The notes under the pieces: model-generated
The model's database searches: none
What the model saw: only the letters and a program-made list of their open reading frames with translations
Told to the model about the DNA's origin: nothing
Origin: a virus
Taxonomy: Duplodnaviria; Caudoviricetes
Virus record (IMG/VR): IMGVR_UViG_3300030330_004160
Location: 121,387-185,386 of that record
Reading direction: 5' to 3' (one strand)
Length of the DNA stretch: 64,000 bases
Translations under genes and position numbers: made by a program
Shown here: positions 24,262 through 63,752 of the stretch, one piece after another
Layout: every line of letters starts with the position of its first letter
Numbering within the stretch: the first letter of the stretch is position 1

Positions 24262-24284
24262 GCCCATGTGGCTCCTCATTTTTG

Positions 24285-24310
24285 CCCCTCGGGAAACCGA
24301 GGGGTTTTTT
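24285..24310 (+). terminator. Rho-independent terminator
   Basis: CCCCTCGG-GAAA-CCGAGGGG followed by T6. Confidence 0.85.
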
Positions 24311-24312
24311 AT

Positions 24313-36658: not shown

Positions 36659-36733
36659 GCACCCGTGGTGAAAGGGATATCACAGTGGCCTTCTAAGCCA
36701 TTATTCTAGGTTCGAATCCTAGCGGGTGTACCA
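36659..36733 (+). tRNA. tRNA-Arg (anticodon UCU)
   Basis: Acceptor GCACCCG/CGGGTGT, anticodon arm GTGGC-CTTCTAA-GCCAT, T-loop GGTTCGAATCC, encoded CCA. Confidence 0.92.
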
Positions 36734-54197: not shown

Positions 54198-54902
54198 ATG
54201 ACTTATTTATTAGGATTATTGGCGTTACTTTCGTGTGACGTTGGGCTGCAAGCAGATTCTGACGGGGTTTCTGTAGAGGTACAGCAGGTTGCCAACTATG
54301 GCAACAGGGGACTAAAGAGATCATTTGACTCTGCGGTTCAACTTACAACTTATCAAGACGGAGAAGCCATCGGAACAGCATCCGGTGGCTATTTTATTTA
54401 TAATGGACACAAATTTATATTAACTGCGGCTCATGTTGTTGACGGTGGTGATGAATTTGTAGCCCACGAAAGGTATGGTATAGAAACTGTGAAGTGTAGG
54501 GTACTGTATGTTAATAGAGTATACGATATAGCAGTTATTGTTCCCGAAGGGGATTTTAAGACAATGAAGCCAATAAAGTTTACATACGACTATAGCATGA
54601 AGAGAGGAGAGCCGCTTTATTATACTGGATATCCTTCTGAAATGCAAGAGATAACGATGCAAGGTTCTTTTGCTGGTGATCTTGATGACTATTATCTGAT
54701 TCAATCATCGGCTTGGATGGGCTCCTCTGGCTCACCAGTGTTTGATGGGCAAGGCAGAGTCATTGGAGTTATTAGTGGGATTGTTATAGGCTGGACACCT
54801 TATGGAACACCACAGTTAGTTAACAATATGGTAGTAGTAAGTCCAATGTGGGCGATAAGCAACAGTTATCTTAAACAAATACTTAAAGATGGAGCAGATT
54901 AA
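54198..54902 (+). CDS. Trypsin-like serine protease, putative lipoprotein
   Basis: LTAAHV, YDIAV, GSSGSPV; lipobox LLSC. Confidence 0.85.
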   Translation: MTYLLGLLALLSCDVGLQADSDGVSVEVQQVANYGNRGLKRSFDSAVQLTTYQDGEAIGTASGGYFIYNGHKFILTAAHVVDGGDEFVAHERYGIETVKCRVLYVNRVYDIAVIVPEGDFKTMKPIKFTYDYSMKRGEPLYYTGYPSEMQEITMQGSFAGDLDDYYLIQSSAWMGSSGSPVFDGQGRVIGVISGIVIGWTPYGTPQLVNNMVVVSPMWAISNSYLKQILKDGAD

Positions 54903-55119
54903 AGTAGGTACTTTAATTGAGGACATGGGTAAGATTGGCATGATTCGAAGAATCATAGATGCTGGTGCATTGGAACATCTGCACCCTGTCGTCAAGTGGC
55001 GAATGAATTACGAAATATATTACTATGATGGTGTGGTGGGGTACCTAGGCTTGGACTCCCTCCAGCGTTTGGTCGATGGAGGTTCAATTAAAGTCATCTT
55101 TGTGCCAGAAGACTCTTGA
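54889..55119 (+). CDS. Small SH3/KOW-like protein (divergent)
   Basis: IKVGTLIED.GKIGMI...YEIYYYDG. Confidence 0.5.
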   Translation: MEQIKVGTLIEDMGKIGMIRRIIDAGALEHLHPVVKWRMNYEIYYYDGVVGYLGLDSLQRLVDGGSIKVIFVPEDS

Positions 55120-55144
55120 CAACTAGTTAGTAGTGTGCTATATT
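55116..55144 (+). promoter_or_regulatory. Sigma70-like promoter
   Basis: TTGACA-17-TATATT. Confidence 0.65.
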
Positions 55145-55166: not shown

Positions 55167-55373
55167 ATGCTTATTGAGAACAAAACATCTCATCTAACAA
55201 AGTCAAAATTCGCAGAAAATTGGATGATATTATACATGACCGTTAATCTGGTCAAGTTATTAGAAAACAATGTAGGCTATGAAGATGATGAGATGACAAA
55301 GGAAATATTAAATATTACTTTGAATGAACTTTTCAAAAGTGTTTTAAAGCTAGACAATGGAATATGGAATTGA
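55167..55373 (+). CDS. Hypothetical protein
   Basis: SD AAGGAG. Confidence 0.5.
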   Translation: MLIENKTSHLTKSKFAENWMILYMTVNLVKLLENNVGYEDDEMTKEILNITLNELFKSVLKLDNGIWN

Positions 55374-55626
55374 AGTTGACGAATTGGTAACAATCGAAAT
55401 GATCCAGAAGGGTCATTGGCTTCCAGGTACATTGTTAGATTTAACCGGTCAAATGTTTATGGTGATAGGCTATAACTATTGGGGCTGGATTGAAGACTGC
55501 GATGATGAAAATGTGTATTACGATGTGGTATTGTACCACATTGAAACTGGCTGGTACATAGATTTTCCATTGGCTACTGTGCTGTCATATTCAAAAGTTT
55601 TAGGAGAAGATGATGAAAAAGGGTGA
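55357..55626 (+). CDS. Hypothetical protein
   Basis: 89-aa ORF in a chain of overlapping genes. Confidence 0.5.
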   Translation: MEYGIEVDELVTIEMIQKGHWLPGTLLDLTGQMFMVIGYNYWGWIEDCDDENVYYDVVLYHIETGWYIDFPLATVLSYSKVLGEDDEKG

Positions 55627-55870
55627 TAGAGTTAAGTTGACGAAGTTGATCTCTGAAGATGCAAAAGACTGGCTAATGTCTGAGGGTGAGTTCGACGTGC
55701 TTAAACAGCACCTCGGCAAAATCGGCAAGATAGCACACGTCCAGAAACATTATGAGGGCAAGACCGGAGTTAACTATTTTATTGATGTTGAGTATTCTTC
55801 GGGTTATAAATTGTGGAGGGTCAACAAACTTGCTTTTGAACTGGTTGAGTTTGATTTTGACTATGTTTGA
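55610..55870 (+). CDS. SH3/KOW-like array protein
   Basis: MKKGDRVKL...FELVE. Confidence 0.6.
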   Translation: MMKKGDRVKLTKLISEDAKDWLMSEGEFDVLKQHLGKIGKIAHVQKHYEGKTGVNYFIDVEYSSGYKLWRVNKLAFELVEFDFDYV

Positions 55871-56058
55871 TGAAGCAAGGCGATTTGGTTGTGCATAAAA
55901 AATATGGGGTCGGTGTTGTGTTAGAAGTAAAAGAAATATACTCATCATGGGGTCATCCCAATGTTTGGTATCAAGTTTTATTTGCGAGCGATCTAAACAG
56001 ATCAAATCCTTGCTGGATGGCGGCACAAAACTTGGAGGTGATAAATGAGAGTGGGTGA
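55867..56058 (+). CDS. SH3/KOW-like array protein
   Basis: MKQGDLV...GVGVV...YQVLF...LEVINESG. Confidence 0.7.
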   Translation: MMKQGDLVVHKKYGVGVVLEVKEIYSSWGHPNVWYQVLFASDLNRSNPCWMAAQNLEVINESG

Positions 56059-56224
56059 TCTGGTAAGATTAAACCGAGAGTTCTTCGGAGGAGACCCTCC
56101 AGCAGACATTGGTTTAATTGTGAGACAACTCGTCCCCAGACGAGGTAATATGTTCTTAATATTATGGAACGACGGAGAGGTCGAACCATTCCATGAAGAC
56201 GATTTGGAGGTGGTCTGTGTTTAA
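56045..56224 (+). CDS. SH3/KOW-like array protein (not in ORF track)
   Basis: MRVGDLVRLNREFFGGDPPADIGLIV...ILWNDG...DLEVVCV. Confidence 0.7.
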   Translation: MRVGDLVRLNREFFGGDPPADIGLIVRQLVPRRGNMFLILWNDGEVEPFHEDDLEVVCV

Positions 56225-56399
56225 GGAAGGAGATTTAGTTAGGATTGATTGGGACGAGGGAAATAAAAAACTCGGCCTTGGAATTGTATTGAAAAGATAC
56301 AAGCATCATGATACCCCCCTGCTGGTGTGGTGGACCCGAGCGTGCACTCGTGGCTGGGAAGATGCTGAGATGCTTATTAAAGTGGAAGACGGACAATAA
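56217..56399 (+). CDS. SH3/KOW-like array protein
   Basis: GTG start after GGAGG; FKEGDLVRI...LGIV...VWW. Confidence 0.65.
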   Translation: MFKEGDLVRIDWDEGNKKLGLGIVLKRYKHHDTPLLVWWTRACTRGWEDAEMLIKVEDGQ

Positions 56400-56433
56400 A
56401 TGTCCTGGACTTATGGCTCAAAAGAGTTATGTT
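56391..56433 (+). promoter_or_regulatory. Palindrome promoter cassette 1
   Basis: GGACA-ATAAA-TGTCC, TGGACT-16-TATGTT, SD GAGGAGG. Confidence 0.7.
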
Positions 56434-56456
56434 GTTATTATACCGAGGAGGAAACA

Positions 56457-56747
56457 ATGAATCAATTTGAGATTGGAGATCTGGTACAAACCGAAAGCGG
56501 CAGTCATATTGGCGTAGTTTTTGAAAAAGACTCAGAGAGTCCTTCTTATATTCATTATAGCCTGATAACCCCTTGGTACAGAGTCCTCTGGAATGACGGT
56601 GATATAACCGATGAGGATGGACAAGACATGATACTTTATAAAGGAGGAGATGATCATGGGAATGAAAGCAGATGCGAGGAAGCACAAGAAAGCAGACAAG
56701 AAAGTAGCGAGGGAAGCAATGATGCGACTACTTGCGGACAATGTTGA
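56457..56747 (+). CDS. SH3/KOW-like array protein
   Basis: MNQFEIGDLV...IGVV...YRVLWNDG. Confidence 0.65.
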   Translation: MNQFEIGDLVQTESGSHIGVVFEKDSESPSYIHYSLITPWYRVLWNDGDITDEDGQDMILYKGGDDHGNESRCEEAQESRQESSEGSNDATTCGQC

Positions 56748-56982
56748 GAGTCGCTTTAATGTAAGGTTCGACTCAGACTTCGGCGGACCTACGATGAACA
56801 TCATGGTCGAACGAGAAGAGGGGATTGATTGCAATGGCGATACTCCTTACAAAAAATGGCAAGACAGACCCTCTCCCTTCATGGGGTGGAGGGTGGTGTA
56901 CTCTCATTACCCGCACGGATATCTTGCGGTGTTCTATGATACCGATGGCAACTACAAAGTGACAGCGGAAGCGGAGGCATAA
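56656..56982 (+). CDS. Hypothetical protein
   Basis: SD AAGGAGG; ORF of about 108 aa. Confidence 0.55.
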   Translation: MGMKADARKHKKADKKVAREAMMRLLADNVESRFNVRFDSDFGGPTMNIMVEREEGIDCNGDTPYKKWQDRPSPFMGWRVVYSHYPHGYLAVFYDTDGNYKVTAEAEA

Positions 56983-57140
56983 TGAAGATCGGTGATCTGG
57001 TGAGACTTACCTACACTGGGCTGCTCGGTATAATTGTATCAGCCGAAGACGAACATGGCTGGTATAAAGTGCTGGACTTTAACGGCACTGAATGGGAGTG
57101 TAATGGAATGACTTTGGTGGTTATCAATGAAGGTGGGTGA
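56982..57140 (+). CDS. SH3/KOW-like array protein (not in ORF track)
   Basis: MKIGDLVRLTYTGLLGIIV...YKV...LVVINEGG. Confidence 0.7.
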   Translation: MKIGDLVRLTYTGLLGIIVSAEDEHGWYKVLDFNGTEWECNGMTLVVINEGG

Positions 57141-57330
57141 TCTTGTAACATGGTGCAACGCTCATTATAGATCGCACACCTACGCACAGCCAACAAGGAT
57201 AGGTATTGTGATTGAGGTAGATATACCCTCATGGGATGCTGCCCGAGTGGTGGTTAGGGTCCGGTGGTCGGACGGACATTGTTTTGATTATTTAGCGAGT
57301 GATTTAGAAATAATAAATGAAGGTGGGTGA
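57127..57330 (+). CDS. SH3/KOW-like array protein
   Basis: MKVGDLVTW...IGIV...VRWSDG...DLEIINEGG. Confidence 0.75.
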   Translation: MKVGDLVTWCNAHYRSHTYAQPTRIGIVIEVDIPSWDAARVVVRVRWSDGHCFDYLASDLEIINEGG

Positions 57331-57496
57331 TTTGGTTAAAGTGATTGGTGCTGTTCTTATTTCCGATGGCTACATTGGAATAGTGGTGAAGGCATATCCC
57401 AAATCTGATTTATATGTTGGAGTGTTCTTTCCCGACACAGGCAAAATCCAGTATTTCCACAGAGACACATTGGAGGTGATAAATGAAGGTGGGTGA
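57317..57496 (+). CDS. SH3/KOW-like array protein (not in ORF track)
   Basis: MKVGDLVKV...IGIVV...VFFPDTG...LEVINEGG. Confidence 0.7.
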   Translation: MKVGDLVKVIGAVLISDGYIGIVVKAYPKSDLYVGVFFPDTGKIQYFHRDTLEVINEGG

Positions 57497-57722
57497 CTTG
57501 GTTAGATACAGGAACTACCCTGTTCCTACCATAGGGGTGGTTGTTGATGCCGCCCGGACAGGATCTTATGTCGGGGTTATGTGGTCGAAGCACCCTTGGA
57601 AAAATGCCCAAGGCAAGACTTACCATCATCGCTTTGATTTGGAATTGATAGAAACGGACAATAAATGTCCTGGCAAAGAACACGAGATAGAATATATTAC
57701 TAGTACAACAACGGAGGAATAA
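57483..57722 (+). CDS. SH3/KOW-like array protein
   Basis: MKVGDLVRY...IGVVV...VMW...DLELIETDNKCPG. Confidence 0.75.
   Translation: MKVGDLVRYRNYPVPTIGVVVDAARTGSYVGVMWSKHPWKNAQGKTYHHRFDLELIETDNKCPGKEHEIEYITSTTTEE
57656..57698 (+). promoter_or_regulatory. Palindrome promoter cassette 2
   Basis: GGACA-ATAAA-TGTCC, TGGCAA-16-TATATT, leader ACAACAACGGAGG. Confidence 0.7.
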
Positions 57723-58069
57723 TGGCTTATTTAAGAAAACAAGACACAGTATACTTTTTGAACGATGGTCGACCGGTCTTCTCTTTGGTAGAGAAGGTAG
57801 CCTTTCGAAGGTATCTCTCAAAGAAGATAGACCCAAAGACAGGCAAGGGCAAGATGAGGTCCATGCCGTATGCTATTTGTAAAGTCTATTCATCAGAGGA
57901 CACTACCATCCCCACAGGAGCAGAGTTTCTGATACCTGGCTATAAACTGCGGAACATTACAATGAAAGGAGACAAGATCCTTGTCTTGGACAAGACATAT
58001 GTAGCCGAGTTCAAAGAACAATATGGCAATGAATGGGTTAGCAAGTTGATCAACGAGGAGCGAAAATGA
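57722..58069 (+). CDS. Hypothetical basic protein
   Basis: 115 aa; SD GGAGG. Confidence 0.6.
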   Translation: MAYLRKQDTVYFLNDGRPVFSLVEKVAFRRYLSKKIDPKTGKGKMRSMPYAICKVYSSEDTTIPTGAEFLIPGYKLRNITMKGDKILVLDKTYVAEFKEQYGNEWVSKLINEERK

Positions 58070-58905
58070 GAAGAATGAAATGGGGGAAGGGCACTGTATC
58101 ATGTGGTCTTTGTCATGCCTTGGGGCACAATATAAGGAGTTGTCCTCACTTGGAAGAAGTGTTGATGGAAGCAGAACTAATCTCCGAAACTACTGATGGG
58201 GATATAGGTCGCCCACATAAATACAAGCCGTACCAACACATCAGAGCCCTATGGGAAAAGAAAAAGAGAGAAAAAAGAAAACCAAGACCAGAGTCAGCAA
58301 AGCCCCGCAGGTGTAGTTTTTGTAAGATGGAAGGGCACACCAAGCGGAACTGCACGTTCAAGTCGGAGGTCAAAGATATTTTCTATGAGGCCAATGCTGT
58401 ATGGAGAGCGGCGTTCCTCAAGAGAGCCAAGGAAGTTGGCTTGGGCCCAGGTGCTCTCATAAAAATAAAAAGATTCCAAGCCTACTCTGGTGCTACCGGT
58501 GGGTGGGGGGTCTACAAAAATGTCATTAGTCTTGTGACAAGCGCAGCATGGGATGAACTAACATTCATGAATAGTTATGGCGACCACTGGCAATATCAAT
58601 CACTGTGGTTGATTGAACATCATTTGGCAATCCCCGACAACAATGTCAAAGTCAAAATAGGCCAGCCGGAACTTAAACAATTCTTCGGCGCACTTTTTTA
58701 TGCTGACCCGTTACATAATAAAGGCATTAAAACCATAGAGATTATTAACAAGGCTCCGATGCCTTTAGATGATGCGTGGGTATACAATAAAGAAGTGAAA
58801 GAACTTGACTGGCTAATAGCACAGCACTCGTTGGGAGAACTTGAGCGTGATTATGCCATCATACCTTTGGCCGAGAGCATAATCAAAAATGGAATACGTC
58901 CATGA
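58066..58905 (+). CDS. Protein with two CCHC zinc knuckles
   Basis: CGLCHALGHNIRSC and CSFCKMEGHTKRNC (CX2CX4HX4C). Confidence 0.7.
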   Translation: MRRMKWGKGTVSCGLCHALGHNIRSCPHLEEVLMEAELISETTDGDIGRPHKYKPYQHIRALWEKKKREKRKPRPESAKPRRCSFCKMEGHTKRNCTFKSEVKDIFYEANAVWRAAFLKRAKEVGLGPGALIKIKRFQAYSGATGGWGVYKNVISLVTSAAWDELTFMNSYGDHWQYQSLWLIEHHLAIPDNNVKVKIGQPELKQFFGALFYADPLHNKGIKTIEIINKAPMPLDDAWVYNKEVKELDWLIAQHSLGELERDYAIIPLAESIIKNGIRP

Positions 58906-59120
58906 CTTACGGCTTCAACATGGGCGACTTGGTCTGGTGCGGACTCTCCCGTCCCAAAATGGGAGTCATTGTCGGCTTTGATTCGTCAGCGTTTGGCTAT
59001 CTTCAAGCCGTTCTTGTCGTGTGGATTATTGAACTTGGTGACTCCTATCGCTTCCTTGCTGAAGACTGTCGGGTTGTTGACCCGGACACAAATTGTCCTG
59101 GCGGACTTCCAAAGATGTGA
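58902..59120 (+). CDS. SH3/KOW-like array protein
   Basis: FNMGDLVW...MGVIV...VVW...DTNCPG. Confidence 0.65.
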   Translation: MTYGFNMGDLVWCGLSRPKMGVIVGFDSSAFGYLQAVLVVWIIELGDSYRFLAEDCRVVDPDTNCPGGLPKM

Positions 59121-59126
59121 TACATT
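59084..59126 (+). promoter_or_regulatory. Palindrome promoter cassette 3
   Basis: GGACA-CAAAT-TGTCC, TGGCGG-16-TACATT, SD AAGGAGGTG. Confidence 0.7.
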
Positions 59127-59150
59127 ACTACCATACCAAGGAGGTGCTGA

Positions 59151-59330
59151 ATGAAAGTAGGTGATTTGGTTAGAGACACAAAGGCTGAATGGCGGGGCTT
59201 TGGAATTGTTGTGAAGACAGGCAAGTTCGGCATCAATGATACACTTTTAATCTCCGTCATCTGGCCTTGCGATGGAGGAGTCAGAACTTGTGGACCACCG
59301 GGTAGATACGAGGCGGTAAAATGCGGATAG
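59151..59330 (+). CDS. SH3/KOW-like array protein (not in ORF track)
   Basis: MKVGDLVRDTKAEWRGFGIVV...VIW. Confidence 0.7.
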   Translation: MKVGDLVRDTKAEWRGFGIVVKTGKFGINDTLLISVIWPCDGGVRTCGPPGRYEAVKCG

Positions 59331-59509
59331 GTGACTTGGTGAGATGCTGGCGATGGGGAATTCCTGAAATGAGCGAAATGTCTTTAGGAGTTATTGTTGG
59401 CTTTAATGAAAAGGGCGAAGGTGGAAAAGACTTCGTTCATGTTTTTGTCGGTGATGAAGTTATTATTTTTATGCACTTTGATGTGGAGGTGATAAATGAA
59501 AGTGGGTGA
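59321..59509 (+). CDS. SH3/KOW-like array protein
   Basis: MRIGDLVR...LGVIV...DVEVINESG. Confidence 0.7.
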   Translation: MRIGDLVRCWRWGIPEMSEMSLGVIVGFNEKGEGGKDFVHVFVGDEVIIFMHFDVEVINESG

Positions 59510-59750
59510 TTTGGTAAGGTTTAATGAACTTGGTGTTGAGTGGTACATGAATCTTTGTGATTTTGAAGATGACGATGAGGGCTTTGATCAATTCCTTCGT
59601 TTCTCCGTGGTTGGTATTGTGTTGGGTGAAGTGGAGATCAAGGAATTTCTCCTGCCCTCATCAACCGAGCGGCGCATATTGTGGTCTTATCCGCGCCTGT
59701 ATGAAGAGGTCGATGAGCGTTACATTGAGGTGATAAATGAAAGTGGGTGA
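59496..59750 (+). CDS. SH3/KOW-like array protein
   Basis: MKVGDLVRF...VGIV...ILW...IEVINESG. Confidence 0.7.
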   Translation: MKVGDLVRFNELGVEWYMNLCDFEDDDEGFDQFLRFSVVGIVLGEVEIKEFLLPSSTERRILWSYPRLYEEVDERYIEVINESG

Positions 59751-59922
59751 CTTAGTGAGATGGAAGAACCGAGGCACACAATTTGATTACATGATAGGAG
59801 TGCTGCTGGATATCTACACAGACGGAGCAGGACGAGAAAGGTGCAATATTCTCTGGACCTGCGAGAGAGAAAGAGAAGACTGGATACCGCTTGATATACT
59901 GGAGGCATACAATGAAGTTTAA
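59737..59922 (+). CDS. SH3/KOW-like array protein
   Basis: MKVGDLVRW...IGVLL...ILW...LEAYNEV. Confidence 0.7.
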   Translation: MKVGDLVRWKNRGTQFDYMIGVLLDIYTDGAGRERCNILWTCEREREDWIPLDILEAYNEV

Positions 59923-60151
59923 GGTAGGCGATTTGATATTTGACAAGGACTTCCCTGAAGACGGCATGGCTCTGGTGATAGAGGTGAGAGAGCCAAAGAA
60001 CCGACGAGGGAGATGGTGGAAGATGGAAAACGGCTATCGGTGCTTGGAAACCCTCACAGGCAAAACCAACTGGTACACGGTTGGATATGTGGAGGAAGAA
60101 TGTGAAATGGTCAAAGCGGACACAAACTGCCCTGGACTAAAAGAAAAATAA
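59912..60151 (+). CDS. SH3/KOW-like array protein (paralogue of 61157..61393)
   Basis: MKFKVGDLI...EPKNRRGRWWK...ADTNCPG. Confidence 0.7.
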   Translation: MKFKVGDLIFDKDFPEDGMALVIEVREPKNRRGRWWKMENGYRCLETLTGKTNWYTVGYVEEECEMVKADTNCPGLKEK

Positions 60152-60160
60152 AGATATATT
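60118..60160 (+). promoter_or_regulatory. Palindrome promoter cassette 4 (drives uvsE)
   Basis: GGACA-CAAAC-TGCCC, TGGACT-16-TATATT, SD GAGGAGGTG. Confidence 0.7.
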
Positions 60161-60184
60161 ACTACCATACCGAGGAGGTGTGTT

Positions 60185-61096
60185 ATGGAACTTGGATATG
60201 CTTGTATCAATATGACCTTGTCCAAAGGTAAGCCAAGAGTTACCACGAACAGGACAATGATTAGACGGACCTTCGATGCTAAGGGTCTACCCTATGCTTC
60301 GGAGTTGTTCCTACAGAACTCTCTTGATTTATTGCGAATACTCAAGTGGAATCAGCAGCGGAACATCAAGTTCTTCCGGCTGTCCTCACAGATTGTATCG
60401 TGGGCATCAGAGTATGAACTCACGGACTTGCCCGACTACGACAAGATTGAGGAGGTGCTGTTCAAGTGTGGGCTGTTTATCGAAGAACATGGTATGCGGG
60501 TGACCACTCATCCCGACCATTTTGTCAAACTTGCTTCGCCCAAGAAAGATGTGGTCGACAATGCTATTCGTGACTTGGAGATTCACGGCGAGGTCTTTGA
60601 CTTGTTGTGCCTGCCTCGTTCACCATTCGCCAAGATCAATATACATGTGGGTGCTGCCTATGGTGACAAGCCTATGGCTCTTGATAACTTCTGCCGTAAC
60701 TTCCACCGACTATCAGACTCCGTCAAGTCTCGCTTGACTGTGGAGAACGATGACCGAGCGTCGCTGTATTCAGCCAAAGAGTTGTATGACTTGGTATACA
60801 AGCGCATCGGCACACCGATTGTCTTTGACTATCACCACCACAAGTTCAACACTGGCGGGCTATCAGAGCAAGAGGCTTTGGAGGTATCCGCTTCCACTTG
60901 GGGTGATATTACTCCCGTCACTCACTACTCACAGTCTCGGTCTGTGGAACACAACGATCCCAAGATCAAAGCCAATGCCCACAGCGATTCCTACTGGACA
61001 CCAGTGCAGACCTACGGTCTTGATGTTGATGTGATGTTGGAGTGCAAACACAAAGAACTCGGTCTATTCAAGATGCGAGAACTACTCGGACAATAA
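60185..61096 (+). CDS. uvsE: UV damage endonuclease
   Basis: LGYACIN, FFRLSS, HPDHF, INIHVG, LTVENDD, FDYHHH, HYS, AHSD, MLECK.KE. Confidence 0.93.
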   Translation: MELGYACINMTLSKGKPRVTTNRTMIRRTFDAKGLPYASELFLQNSLDLLRILKWNQQRNIKFFRLSSQIVSWASEYELTDLPDYDKIEEVLFKCGLFIEEHGMRVTTHPDHFVKLASPKKDVVDNAIRDLEIHGEVFDLLCLPRSPFAKINIHVGAAYGDKPMALDNFCRNFHRLSDSVKSRLTVENDDRASLYSAKELYDLVYKRIGTPIVFDYHHHKFNTGGLSEQEALEVSASTWGDITPVTHYSQSRSVEHNDPKIKANAHSDSYWTPVQTYGLDVDVMLECKHKELGLFKMRELLGQ

Positions 61097-61130
61097 ATGT
61101 CCTGGACTTTTCTTGGAAACTGGATACATT
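61088..61130 (+). promoter_or_regulatory. Palindrome promoter cassette 5
   Basis: GGACA-ATAAA-TGTCC, TGGACT-16-TACATT, leader ACCAACAACGGAGG. Confidence 0.7.
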
Positions 61131-61156
61131 ATTTATACCAACAACGGAGGTGGTGA

Positions 61157-61393
61157 ATGAAGTTTAAGATAGGTGACTTGCTATACGACAGGGATTACCC
61201 TGAAGATGGCTTTGCTTTGGTTGTTGAGGTGAAAGAGCCAAAGAACCGAAGAGGGAGATGGTGGAAGAACTCTAATGGCTATCGCTGCTATGAAATACTG
61301 ACAGGAAAATACGCTTGGTACACCACCGGCTACATAGAGGAAGAGTGCGAAATGGTCAAAGCGGACAATAAATGTCCTGGACTAAATGATTGA
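61157..61393 (+). CDS. SH3/KOW-like array protein (paralogue of 59912..60151)
   Basis: 58 of 78 residues identical to the 59912 copy by manual alignment. Confidence 0.7.
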   Translation: MKFKIGDLLYDRDYPEDGFALVVEVKEPKNRRGRWWKNSNGYRCYEILTGKYAWYTTGYIEEECEMVKADNKCPGLND

Positions 61394-61405
61394 AAAGGTT
61401 AGATT
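61363..61405 (+). promoter_or_regulatory. Palindrome promoter cassette 6
   Basis: GGACA-ATAAA-TGTCC, TGGACT-16-TAGATT, leader ACCAACAACGGAG. Confidence 0.7.
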
Positions 61406-61429
61406 AGATATACCAACAACGGAGATAAC

Positions 61430-61621
61430 ATGACTGATAACAAAAACGAGGTGACTATCACCATCAATGTGAGCGATTCGCTCCTTAATACTTTTGCTAA
61501 TCTTTTGATTTTAGCCAACGTACCTGCTCCCCAAGTACTGGGGCTACCCCCTGGTATGGCCGTTGCGAAACCGCCACAAAACAAAGCCCCTATCGGCTTT
61601 AAAGCACAGGTGAAGAAATGA
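61430..61621 (+). CDS. Hypothetical protein
   Basis: 63 aa; SD GGAG; ends in a PIGF motif. Confidence 0.55.
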   Translation: MTDNKNEVTITINVSDSLLNTFANLLILANVPAPQVLGLPPGMAVAKPPQNKAPIGFKAQVKK

Positions 61622-61878
61622 GTTATAAAAACAAAGAAGAATCAAAATGGAAAATTGGTGACTTGGTAACTCTTTCATCGGCAGGACTACGAACAGACCA
61701 GAACAGAGGTTTGACCAAGAGGAATGAAGATGGAAGGTTAGTTCCATATGGATTTGGGATGGTCACCAATGTCCTCAATTGTAGGCTTGAAAGATGGCCT
61801 GTTCGCTGCCGATGGATCGCAGGACCACAAGAGTTTGCAAGTTTTGCTGATTATGAATTGAAGAGGTACAAAGTATGA
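61618..61878 (+). CDS. SH3/KOW-like array protein
   Basis: SKWKIGDLVTLS...GFGMV...DYELKRYK. Confidence 0.7.
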   Translation: MSYKNKEESKWKIGDLVTLSSAGLRTDQNRGLTKRNEDGRLVPYGFGMVTNVLNCRLERWPVRCRWIAGPQEFASFADYELKRYKV

Positions 61879-62087
61879 AGAAATCAAAATGGAAGGTAGG
61901 CGATTTAGTGACCCTATCCGCAGCAGGTAGGAAAAGCCAACAGAATTATCAGGTGCTGGGAGGCTTCGGCTTGGTGGTACACGTATCAGACCATTGGAGC
62001 GACAACTACCCTATTCGTTGTCACTGGATTGGAGGCGAAGTGGAGTTTCAAACATTCAAGGACTACGAACTGAAAAGATATAAGTAG
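61875..62087 (+). CDS. SH3/KOW-like array protein (tandem paralogue of the preceding gene)
   Basis: SKWKVGDLVTLS...GFGLV...DYELKRYK. Confidence 0.7.
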   Translation: MKKSKWKVGDLVTLSAAGRKSQQNYQVLGGFGLVVHVSDHWSDNYPIRCHWIGGEVEFQTFKDYELKRYK

Positions 62088-62129
62088 GACACAATCTGTC
62101 CTGGACTATTTATCTGGGGCGGATATATT
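62087..62129 (+). promoter_or_regulatory. Palindrome promoter cassette 7
   Basis: GGACA-CAATC-TGTCC, TGGACT-16-TATATT. Confidence 0.7.
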
Positions 62130-62153
62130 ACTACCATCAACAGCGGAGATAAT

Positions 62154-62303
62154 ATGAAGATTGGTGACTTGGTTAGAGACTTAAAGGACGGCAGGATTGC
62201 CGTGGTGATTGGAACTCATTCTACGGGATACCAACGGGTTCGATTCGTTGATAGTGCCGACAGAGTATGGAGAGTCCATCTGAATGACTTGGAGGCAGTA
62301 TGA
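62154..62303 (+). CDS. SH3/KOW-like array protein (not in ORF track)
   Basis: MKIGDLVRDLKDGRIAVVI...RVRF...DLEAV. Confidence 0.7.
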   Translation: MKIGDLVRDLKDGRIAVVIGTHSTGYQRVRFVDSADRVWRVHLNDLEAV

Positions 62304-62464
62304 AGTTTAAGGTAGGCGATTTGATTATAAGGAAGAGTGGTGGACTGCTGGCTATAGTGGTAAACACCGATAGGCAGGACAGAGGCATTATAAAGGTTCA
62401 GTTTTATGGAGGCTGGGACCCTGAGTGGTGCGACCAACCGGTGGACGCTTGGAGGCATCAATGA
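62300..62464 (+). CDS. SH3/KOW-like array protein (not in ORF track)
   Basis: MKFKVGDLIIRKSGGLLAIVV...KVQF. Confidence 0.65.
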   Translation: MKFKVGDLIIRKSGGLLAIVVNTDRQDRGIIKVQFYGGWDPEWCDQPVDAWRHQ

Positions 62465-62560
62465 AAATATTAATTGATAGGCGAATGTTGTTGACTTTCG
62501 CCGCAGCAGATGCGGTCTTCTGGTTCTCATTGGGAGCATTTATATTTTCAGGAGGTTGCG

Positions 62561-62752
62561 ATGGAATATAAGGTAGGCGATTTGGTTAAAGACTTGAGTG
62601 ATGGTGAGATGATGATAATAGCGAAGATAAGACAGCCATCAGAAGATGACCCAAGAAGGATATGCTGCTGGTCACCGAAACACAGCGACTTCTACTGGTA
62701 TGACCACGAGGATATGGATTATTGGTTGAGGGTGATAGAATGTCCTGGATAA
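62561..62752 (+). CDS. SH3/KOW-like array protein
   Basis: MEYKVGDLVKD...LRVIECPG; SD AGGAGG. Confidence 0.65.
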   Translation: MEYKVGDLVKDLSDGEMMIIAKIRQPSEDDPRRICCWSPKHSDFYWYDHEDMDYWLRVIECPG

Positions 62753-62805
62753 GAAGAAACAGACAGAATAATAATTGGTATTATATAAAACAAAGAGAGG
62801 AACAG

Positions 62806-63096
62806 ATGAAATACAGACAAGTAACATGCAAAGATGGATTTACAATGTCGGTCCAAGCAGGCGAGAATCTACATTCAAGCCCCAAGCAAAACTCTGCGGA
62901 GCGGTACGAAGAAGTGGAAATAGGCTACCCCTCCGCAAAAGAGAGTTTAATACTGGAATATGCCGAAAGACCTGAAACTCCAACGGATACGGTTTATGCC
63001 TATGTGCCGGTACATATTGTTACCCTTGTAATTGCCAAGCACGGAGGCATCGTAAGTGGGGAGGTTCCACCGGGAGTTATAGCACTCCCAGCATAA
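62806..63096 (+). CDS. Phage hypothetical protein
   Basis: CKDGFTMSVQAG...VEIGYPS...PTDTVYAYVP resembles a motif seen in other phage hypotheticals. Confidence 0.6.
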   Translation: MKYRQVTCKDGFTMSVQAGENLHSSPKQNSAERYEEVEIGYPSAKESLILEYAERPETPTDTVYAYVPVHIVTLVIAKHGGIVSGEVPPGVIALPA

Positions 63097-63098
63097 AC

Positions 63099-63142
63099 GG
63101 ACAGAAAATGTCCTGGTGCCCTACTGGAGGAGGGGGTATATT
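63099..63142 (+). promoter_or_regulatory. Palindrome promoter cassette 8
   Basis: GGACA-GAAAA-TGTCC, TGGTGC-17-TATATT, leader CAACAACGGAGG. Confidence 0.7.
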
Positions 63143-63163
63143 ACTAACATCAACAACGGAGGA

Positions 63164-63415
63164 ATGATGAACGATAAAGTAGAAGCAATGCAAGAAGCAA
63201 TAGAATTTATCCAGAGAACTTGGCTCGGAAGTTTTCAAGGAAGTTGGGAAGGCCCAGTCAATGACTTTGTCGGCGCAACCATAGGCGAAGAGATAACCAT
63301 CGAAGATGTGCAAGCCATCGTGGAAGCATACAAGTCGGGAGAATGGACACCAGTTCAAAATATTGATGGAGATATTGAGAACGGAAGGCTGACAAAAGTT
63401 AGAGTTTGGAAATGA
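63164..63415 (+). CDS. Hypothetical protein
   Basis: SD GGAGG; follows a promoter cassette. Confidence 0.55.
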   Translation: MMNDKVEAMQEAIEFIQRTWLGSFQGSWEGPVNDFVGATIGEEITIEDVQAIVEAYKSGEWTPVQNIDGDIENGRLTKVRVWK

Positions 63416-63687
63416 GACGAGTGAAAAAAACATATCTAATTAACCTCGTGTGTATTGCGGGTGTATATTATGCCTTGTTTATGGCAAGCACTATTAAAAA
63501 CTGGAGGAAACGTGTACGGAACAAAGATACAAAGAGCCCAATTGACCGCTTCAAATATAGCCACCCTGATAGCCCTGCAAGTTGTGTTGGATGCTATCGA
63601 CAGGGAACCGGACGAAGAGACGAGAGCCTATCTCAATGAGAGAATGAAAGAACTATTCAAAGACCCCATGTGCGCTGAAGCCTGACC

Positions 63688-63730
63688 GGACACAAACTGT
63701 CCTGGACTATTTATCTAAAGCGGATATACT
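63688..63730 (+). promoter_or_regulatory. Palindrome promoter cassette 9
   Basis: GGACA-CAAAC-TGTCC, TGGACT-16-TATACT, SD AAGGAG. Confidence 0.7.
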
Positions 63731-63752
63731 GTTAGTATGAAAAGGAGAGAAC

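Follow-up and report, generated by a model that had tools for sequence, protein, structure and literature searches.

What does a short inverted repeat do when it stands, always in the same orientation, in front of one small-gene unit after another in a phage genome? The question is raised by a 64,000-nt stretch of an uncultured marine myovirus (hereafter the window), which covers positions 121,387 to 185,386 of the 185,386-bp IMG/VR virus record IMGVR_UViG_3300030330_004160 (C1; Duplodnaviria, Caudoviricetes), a record rated complete. Here, the palindrome GGACA-N5-TGTCC (hereafter the dyad) lies directly upstream of promoters that serve an array of small genes. Our preferred reading, to which we give a probability of about 0.55, is that these elements are mobile cassettes of the promoter-early stem-loop (PeSL) kind, in which the inverted repeat would be the operator of a dimeric protein, likely an activating one, that co-controls ~19 transcription units, and that the same cassettes double as recombination homology.

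Exact dyads number eight in the window (cassettes 1 to 3 and 5 to 9 in Table 1) versus 0.01 expected from dinucleotide-preserving shuffles, and they are joined by a one-mismatch copy with a TGCCC right arm (cassette 4) and by a degenerate copy that retains the TGTCC arm, has lost the left arm (GGTGA), and lacks a clean -10; no dyad copies beyond these ten were found in the window. An earlier note, made from the window alone, had listed these sites, including the degenerate one, together with a TGG trailer (TGGACT in six copies) and a regularly spaced TAxxxT hexamer, and all of this checks against the sequence: TGG directly follows all nine full copies, and a TAnnnT hexamer comes after a 16-bp spacer in eight of them and a 17-bp spacer in cassette 8. 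Its statement that the copies occur only beyond 56 kb holds within the window but not for the genome, which carries nine more at C1:495-8370, of which eight are exact and the one at 1726 is a GGTCA variant; the small-gene array wraps the record ends, so that the window stops inside it and the array runs on past cassette 9 into C1:1-8370. The genome thus totals 16 exact, two one-mismatch, and one degenerate copies, all 19 on the + strand within a single ~16-kb arc of small genes. A reversed-pattern control returned zero and no real copies occur elsewhere in the 185 kb, which extends the same-facing arrangement from the window to the whole genome.

All 18 full copies, together with 128 unique ones from relatives, share one anatomy, in which the inverted repeat, a sigma70-like -35 and -10, a Shine-Dalgarno sequence (SD), and a start codon fill the intergenic gap; in the window, the -10s are followed by a leader, a GGAG-type SD, and the start codon. 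These cassettes are the sole sizeable gaps in the arc (33-70 nt), and genes overlap or abut within units of 1-7 genes. The proposal that a repeated promoter cassette marks a dedicated gene set is therefore borne out as one contiguous run of ~19 transcription units. If transcription starts 7 nt after the -10, the 15-bp dyad would span about -49 to -35 with its centre at -42/-43, and on that assumption the placement near -42, abutting the -35, holds as well. At 57656, 59084, 60118, and 61363, the upstream open reading frame (ORF) reads through the dyad and ends in tails like ...DNKCPG... or ...DTNCPG..., while in other copies the stop codon precedes the dyad or falls in its spacer. We considered the dyad as a peptide motif (...D-N/T-K/N-C-P-G) and rejected this, because a stop codon stands before the dyad in most copies and in relatives.

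The cassettes form one of three promoter or motif classes in this genome. Plain promoters of the form TTGACA-N16-18-TAnAnT, with A-rich upstream regions and a perfect -35 (n=21 on the + strand), precede replication and metabolism genes as well as the first operon of the array, in agreement with the earlier observation that upstream genes use TTGACA promoters. Dyad cassettes are restricted to the small-gene arc. A late-type motif, aCTATTTAt, has 36 occurrences on the + strand versus six on the - strand, frequently 12-64 nt ahead of a structural gene, and the phage encodes a gp55-like late sigma. This motif also lies within cassettes 7 and 9, and, because it overlaps the -35 and spacer there, the units of both may be active in the early as well as the late phase.

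The cassette is not peculiar to this phage, being found in at least six other complete relatives and in many fragments (including L135, L140, L143, L162, L181, L185, and L232). For example, there are 16 exact copies in G001 and nine in G002, and, counted with the GGWCA pattern, 12 copies in G006, 11 in G007, and seven in G008. The DnaE proteins of these cassette-bearing relatives are just 54-73% identical to that of this phage, and throughout, the parts follow one another in a constant order: the stop codon of the upstream gene, AC(C), the dyad with five A/T-rich bp between its arms, the -35, 16-17 bp, a TAnAnT -10 that is often preceded by TGn, an A/C-rich leader, a GGAG SD, and the ATG. As a separate observation, a second inverted repeat, CCTCGAC..GTCGAGG, crosses the -35 and spacer of some relatives' cassettes (G001 10965, 12740, 16424, 19402, and 21061; G002 93789), and in these cassettes a third GGACA half-site may stand right before the -10.

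Which features of the cassette are constrained was assessed in 128 unique cassettes. The distance from the end of the dyad to the -10 was 22 nt in 98 of the 128 and 23 nt in 29, and the junction between TGWCC and the -35 showed zero indels, while the 5-bp spacer, the flanks, and the sequence between -35 and -10 varied freely. Within the arms, the commonest variant was A/T at the third base. Canonical arm pairs numbered 111; a further 26 carried the change on one side only (GGTCA..TGTCC or GGACA..TGACC), leaving the 5-bp stem with its central pair broken, and three were compensated (GGTCA..TGACC), versus ~1.8 expected if the arms vary independently. Given this 26:3 ratio, with compensated pairs near the independence expectation, stem pairing does not appear to be selected, and each arm looks like a GGWCA half-site evolving on its own. 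An A/T-rich core separates the half-sites, and the 10 bp from one centre to the other is the standard geometry for a dimeric helix-turn-helix (HTH)-type protein bound to one face of DNA.

From this architecture, we infer protein binding at the dyad, together with a direction and a timing for the regulation that it would impose. The host sigma70-type RNA polymerase would read the cassette promoter, and the dyad would serve as duplex operator for a dimeric, sequence-specific protein that could be phage- or host-encoded. Because the cassette of every unit carries the same operator-like dyad, a single factor could jointly control ~19 transcription units of accessory small genes. Activation through contact with sigma region 4 or alpha would be the most likely mode, since a site at -42 touches the -35 and degraded -35 hexamers are tolerated. 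All 19 cassette -35s in this genome start with TGG and match TTGACA at 2-5 of 6 positions, several at only 2-3, versus the perfect TTGACA of the 21 dyad-less promoters in the same genome, and such degraded hexamers fit promoters that lean on a bound factor.

The relatives place a bound on this argument. Beside their dyads, L162, L140, and L181 have -35s of TTGACA or TTGACT within consensus promoters (TTGACA/TTGACT-N16/17-TATATT), G001 has TCGACA, and the L232 group has TTTACA. Because the same dyad is paired with consensus hexamers there, it is an addition to a sigma70 promoter rather than a -35 substitute, the TGG form of this genome being derived and weakened, and the notion that the dyad compensates for a missing -35 was abandoned. 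Of the earlier proposal of a dimeric factor that co-activates the array, the sequence evidence favours one part, the dimeric DNA-binding factor, over an extruded hairpin, and leaves activation plausible but not required.

Several further points weigh against the activator-operator reading. Consensus promoters such as those in L162, L140, and L181 should need no activator, and in relatives the -35 of a few copies begins only 9-30 bp past the dyad, which makes the phasing less than absolute. The copies were gathered by dyad similarity, and part of the invariance at arm positions 1, 2, 4, and 5 is thereby built in; common descent and gene conversion among the repeated copies also mean that their conservation overstates independent selection. 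Finally, Pfam and PHROG scans of ~170 small ORFs recovered no transcription factor, and no binding protein for the dyad was found.

Other searches for such a factor gave similar results. Phyletic profiles over five and then 12 genomes and protein atlas look-ups yielded no regulator, a literature search for the motif returned nothing relevant, and genome-wide HTH_3, Sigma70_r4, and Sigma70_r2 scans recovered only the HTH of a GIY-YIG homing endonuclease and the gp55-like late sigma. The Pfam tallies likewise held no transcription factor, although MotA and AsiA were not specifically searched for. One candidate came from the locus itself, a single-copy gene for a 76-aa protein at the upstream border of the array, which borders the array in 11 contigs and occurs in every dyad-bearing phage examined. 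Dyad cassettes are present in 28 of 40 protease-anchored loci with this gene versus 0 of 16 without it. However, in the other 12 loci the gene is present and the cassettes are absent, and it also occurs in dyad-less sister phages; hence, the protein is not dyad-specific and was rejected as a specific partner of the dyad. Its structural model is a Tudor/SH3-like barrel (predicted local distance difference test score, pLDDT, 80), with weak fold matches to RNA polymerase-binding Tudor domains (the N-terminal domain of CdnL/CarD, Mfd, and the C-terminal domain of UvrD). In some relatives, the protein is extended by a Pro-rich linker and a highly basic tail. Separately, a 63-aa mini-protein encoded upstream of cassette 1 matched the first 22 positions of Pfam CarD_TRCF_RID above cut-off (24.9 bits). 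The MKVGDLVR-type mini-proteins may be derived from such polymerase-interacting Tudor domains.

The main rival explanation keeps an operator and reverses its sign: the array would have strong early promoters on host RNA polymerase, and a phage early protein would bind the dyad to shut the array or to insulate units. This shut-off is unlikely on balance, though it is the alternative we take most seriously. Several relatives have a consensus -35 and a near-consensus -10 adjoining the dyad, extra GGACA half-sites occur near the -10 in some G001 and G002 cassettes, and in T4-type phages, arrays of small ORFs behind repeated sigma70 promoters make up the early class (PMC2839356, PMC4122927). Against it, the -35s are systematically degraded yet kept in 19 copies here, and the genome scans found no repressor. 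A non-overlapping site at -42 is, further, typical for an activator and unusual for a repressor at E. coli promoters. On balance, activation is favoured over repression as the likelier mode.

The second half of our preferred reading concerns recombination. Since the ~85-bp cassettes are repeated in one orientation, they would serve as homology patches at which gene units swap and reorder. Traces of this are visible in this genome, where the cassette at C1:1119 is a mosaic whose first 20 nt past the dyad are as in C1:182474 and whose -10-to-ATG part is as in C1:185074, with unrelated flanks. Between L232 and L185, shared blocks have 68-94% nucleotide identity and cassette-bounded units are permuted. 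As suggested earlier, we examined whether synteny breakpoints fall at the cassettes, and 16 of 39 block ends lie in cassettes versus 6.6 expected (p about 4e-4), in support of the proposed role as homology blocks; several block ends lie 5-11 nt before a dyad, and one L185 cassette is chimeric, with its crossover between -10 and SD. The gene for UvdE has a cassette to itself here as well as in L162 and L140, with differing neighbours, and lies outside the array behind plain promoters in G002, G003, and G004. In the relatives, the cassettes thus appear to act as recombination blocks.

Could recombination, then, be the primary function of the dyad, with the link to promoters secondary? For this, the dyad would have to be recognised by a protein that starts exchange or gene conversion, and a candidate exists in a 72-aa protein encoded outside the window, between a primase-like gene and Mre11-Rad50, with an HNH gene inserted after it here. 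In a co-occurrence screen of ~230 ORFs over 12 genomes (11 informative), it was the sole ORF to match dyad presence exactly: hidden Markov model matches of 1e-36 to 1e-39 were found in 5 of 5 dyad-bearing complete genomes and in 0 of 6 dyad-less ones. For example, G012, which nests within the dyad clade in the DnaE tree, is dyad-less and lacks the gene at the syntenic site. Pfam Smr was the top match for all five members (best 4.1e-5, below cut-off), the AlphaFold2 model has a pLDDT of 90.9, and the best Foldseek matches are Smr domains (TM-score up to 0.80), and on this evidence the protein is a minimal stand-alone Smr domain.

Smr proteins belong to a nicking-endonuclease family, Mre11-Rad50 is encoded next door, shuffling at cassettes is observed, and the authors of the PeSL work speculated on a helper protein of this sort (PMC2839356). 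But the co-occurrence is a lead only, because it amounts to about one independent loss and was picked from ~230 ORFs. Further, no Smr domain is known to recognise duplex DNA in a sequence-specific way, a recombination role leaves the strict zero-bp distance to the -35 unexplained, and the observed crossovers lie in the -10-to-SD part rather than at the dyad. A dyad that is mainly a recombination site is therefore improbable in our estimate, and we hold to the same low odds the variant in which the Smr protein recognises the dyad, marks or tunes the array promoters, and nicks them. If it were true, the phage would have a self-encoded system that targets recombination to promoter cassettes, shuffling and homogenising accessory-gene modules.

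A little less probable again is the reading, raised earlier as an extruded hairpin, that the palindrome acts as RNA or single-stranded DNA, either as terminator or attenuator of the upstream unit or as a processing or stabilising site for read-through mRNA. The dyad does lie directly past the upstream stop codon, as does the terminating PeSL stem-loop of RB49 (PMC2839356), its folding z-scores are ~-2 to -3, and in some relatives a U-rich stretch follows it (e.g., TTGCTTTTTT). On the other side, the predicted RNA fold reaches only -6 to -8.6 kcal/mol (~-6 for the 5-bp stem here, with no U tract) and the TGCCC variant at 60118 fails to fold into a hairpin, whereas genuine terminators of this phage have a long GC stem and then U6, such as one (24283-24312) of -19.5 kcal/mol. 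In silico, the dyad has neither the G+C-rich stem of ~7 bp or more nor the U tract of an intrinsic terminator, and, judged in silico only, it does not form an effective terminator stem-loop in the PeSL sense. Further, true hairpins co-vary, while this stem sequence is invariant over deep divergence and its variants are uncompensated in 26 cases versus three. A terminator or hairpin was thus rejected on covariation and folding energy. Least probable of all is an UP-element-like enhancer without a dedicated factor, in which the C-terminal domains of alpha would read A/T tracts at ~-42 and -52 and the arms would be lineage-specific filler kept uniform by gene conversion: the A/T-rich spacer and AAAC flank do fall where the proximal and distal UP subsites would be, members of a sister clade (L294, L295, L309, L310) have an A/T-tract module at exactly the same position, and plain promoters here have A-rich upstream regions, but it is the G/C-containing arms that are invariant and the A/T spacer that varies, perfect dyad symmetry is not expected of such sites, and the arms are identical across genomes whose proteins are only 54-73% identical.

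That sister clade belongs to a wider turnover of upstream modules. Cassettes are absent from G003, G004, G009, G010, G011, G012, and G014, and in cassette-less genomes the orthologues of a MoxR-like ATPase and a DUF2201 protein stand behind plain promoters. At the same upstream position, the four sister-clade members have the module AAAAA(C/G)TTTnTCTTTTTnC, and G003, L314, and L324 have tandem TTGACA direct repeats (TTGACA-N5-TTGACA-N9-TTGACW). In G004 (L103-L104, ~39-55 kb), which is dyad-less, many array genes end in a conserved ...TKIVA-x-x-P tail, and what is conserved upstream of the promoters there codes for the C-terminal end of the preceding gene's product, with the TGA stop inside the next TTGACA -35.

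Coordinates of the cassettes and of other features are given in Table 1. The 279-aa protein of the cassette 2 unit has two CCHC zinc knuckles (C-x2-C-x4-H-x4-C); the protein is kept in all relatives, and it had no Pfam or PHROG match. Beyond the window, all relatives also share the MoxR-like AAA+ ATPase and the DUF2201 protein (metallopeptidase plus VWA-like); each gene has its own dyad cassette here and a plain promoter in G003 and G004. A single tRNA was found in the window, and none in C1:1-20000.

Table 1. Positions of cassettes and other features (window numbering unless prefixed C1, the complete record, or L132)
Feature	Position	Strand	Dyad	-35	-10	ATG	Downstream unit or remark
Plain promoter, dyad-less	55116..55144	+		TTGACA	TATATT		N17 spacer; heads the first operon of the array (55167-56399)
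Cassette 1	56391..56456	+	56391-56405, exact	TGGACT, 56406-56411	TATGTT, 56428-56433	56457	~7 small genes, to 57722
Cassette 2	57656..57721	+	57656-57670, exact	TGGCAA	TATATT, 57693-57698	57722	115-aa protein, then 279-aa protein with two CCHC knuckles; dyad within 3' end of upstream ORF
Cassette 3	59084..59150	+	59084-59098, exact	TGGCGG	extended, TGnTACATT (hexamer 59121-59126)	59151	five overlapping MKVGDLVR-type mini-genes
Cassette 4	60118..60184	+	60118-60132, TGCCC variant	TGGACT	TATATT, 60155-60160	60185	UvdE UV-damage endonuclease (60185-61096)
Cassette 5	61088..61156	+	61088-61102, exact	TGGACT	TACATT, 61125-61130	61157	dyad spacer contains the UvdE stop codon
Cassette 6	61363..61429	+	61363-61377, exact	TGGACT	TAGATT, 61400-61405	61430	63-aa protein (conserved in G001 and G002), then two mini-genes
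Cassette 7	62087..62153	+	62087-62101, exact	TGGACT	TATATT, 62124-62129	62154	late-type motif ACTATTTAT (62106) across -35 and spacer
Degenerate copy	62731..62805	+	GGTGA left arm, TGTCC right arm	TGGATA	none clean at the standard distance	62806	probably a decayed cassette
Cassette 8	63099..63163	+	63099-63113, exact	TGGTGC	TATATT, 63137-63142 (17-bp spacer)	63164 or 63167	
Cassette 9	63688..63752	+	63688-63702, exact	TGGACT	TATACT, 63725-63730	63753	late-type motif ACTATTTAT (63707) across -35 and spacer
76-aa border protein	54889-55119	+					upstream border of the array
63-aa mini-protein	55867-56058						CarD_TRCF_RID match
279-aa CCHC protein	58066-58905						
Terminator	24283-24312						U6 run
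tRNA-Arg(TCT)	36659-36733						
MoxR-like ATPase and DUF2201 protein	C1:3232-5553						
gp55-like late sigma	C1:53810-54532						
72-aa Smr-like protein	C1:93418-93636 (L132:13418-13633)						outside the window

With regard to the phage itself, it has T4-like modules (gp32, gp25, T4_baseplate, prohead core protease, and the gp55-like late sigma), but its replicase is DnaE-like; GroEL and ribonucleotide reductase are also encoded. The closest GenBank relatives of its DnaE are at just 31%, and searches of GenBank phages with the array DNA and with the tape-measure protein gave no match; hence, no annotated relative exists. A host search through the vWA lipoprotein found no bacterial relative, and one through GroEL found only two Cytophagales metagenome-assembled genomes (44-53% identity). 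A Cytophagales host was set aside as unlikely, because the phage has TTGACA promoters and strong SDs.

Among known systems, the closest likeness is to the PeSL cassettes described in the T4-type phages RB49/phi1, PST/T4, and nt-1/KVP40 (PMC2839356, PMC4122927). The layout is shared, in that an intergenic inverted repeat immediately precedes a sigma70-like promoter, after which come an SD and start codon. So is the setting, with numerous copies that all face one way among small ORFans in hyperplastic regions, and so is the exchange of modules at the cassettes, where crossovers fall between the -10 and the SD or ATG, as in PeSL mini-circles (PMC2839356). The differences lie in the repeat, since the G/C runs that form PeSL stems vary in sequence and position and act as terminators, termination having been demonstrated in RB49 (PMC2839356), whereas here it is a fixed 5+5+5 dyad of invariant sequence, with a weak hairpin that has no U tract, uncompensated variants, and zero distance to the -35. 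The PeSL authors did speculate that a protein might bind the stem-loops (PMC2839356). We therefore regard the present cassette as a putative PeSL-type element whose inverted repeat bears the signature of an operator.

Other comparisons are looser. Class II activator sites, such as those of CRP/FNR at -41.5, lambda cI at OR2 for PRM (-42), and Mu Mor and C (-43.5), resemble the dyad as dimer-type sites at ~-42 touching a sigma70 -35, which is weak in this genome. However, GGWCA with N5 spacing matches none of these sites, relatives have a consensus -35, and the site occurs ~19-fold in the array of a lytic-type phage. The middle promoters of T4, which use MotA, and the PmSL variant of phage nt-1 offer a parallel in that a phage-specific element together with a sigma70 -10 defines a temporal class and can belong to a shuffling cassette, but the Mot box takes the place of the -35, lacks dyad symmetry, and has its centre at -30. 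The stoperators of cluster A mycobacteriophages are likewise short protein-binding sites in 20-30 intergenic copies oriented with transcription, though they are asymmetric 13-mers bound by the immunity repressor, distributed genome-wide, and not phased with promoters.

Arrays like this one hold the most variable and least understood genes of large lytic phages. One invariant operator-like site over ~19 units, in a clade of uncultured marine phages, would give a handle with which to fish out the factor that times them. The cassettes would also extend the PeSL idea, of regulatory cassettes that double as module-exchange linkers, beyond the classic T4-type phages, and suggest that, in cassettes of this kind, the stem-loop part may serve as a protein site instead of a terminator. 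Further, with three alternative upstream modules (the dyad, the A/T-tract, and the tandem TTGACA repeats), the clade may serve as a natural experiment in the turnover of promoter architecture.

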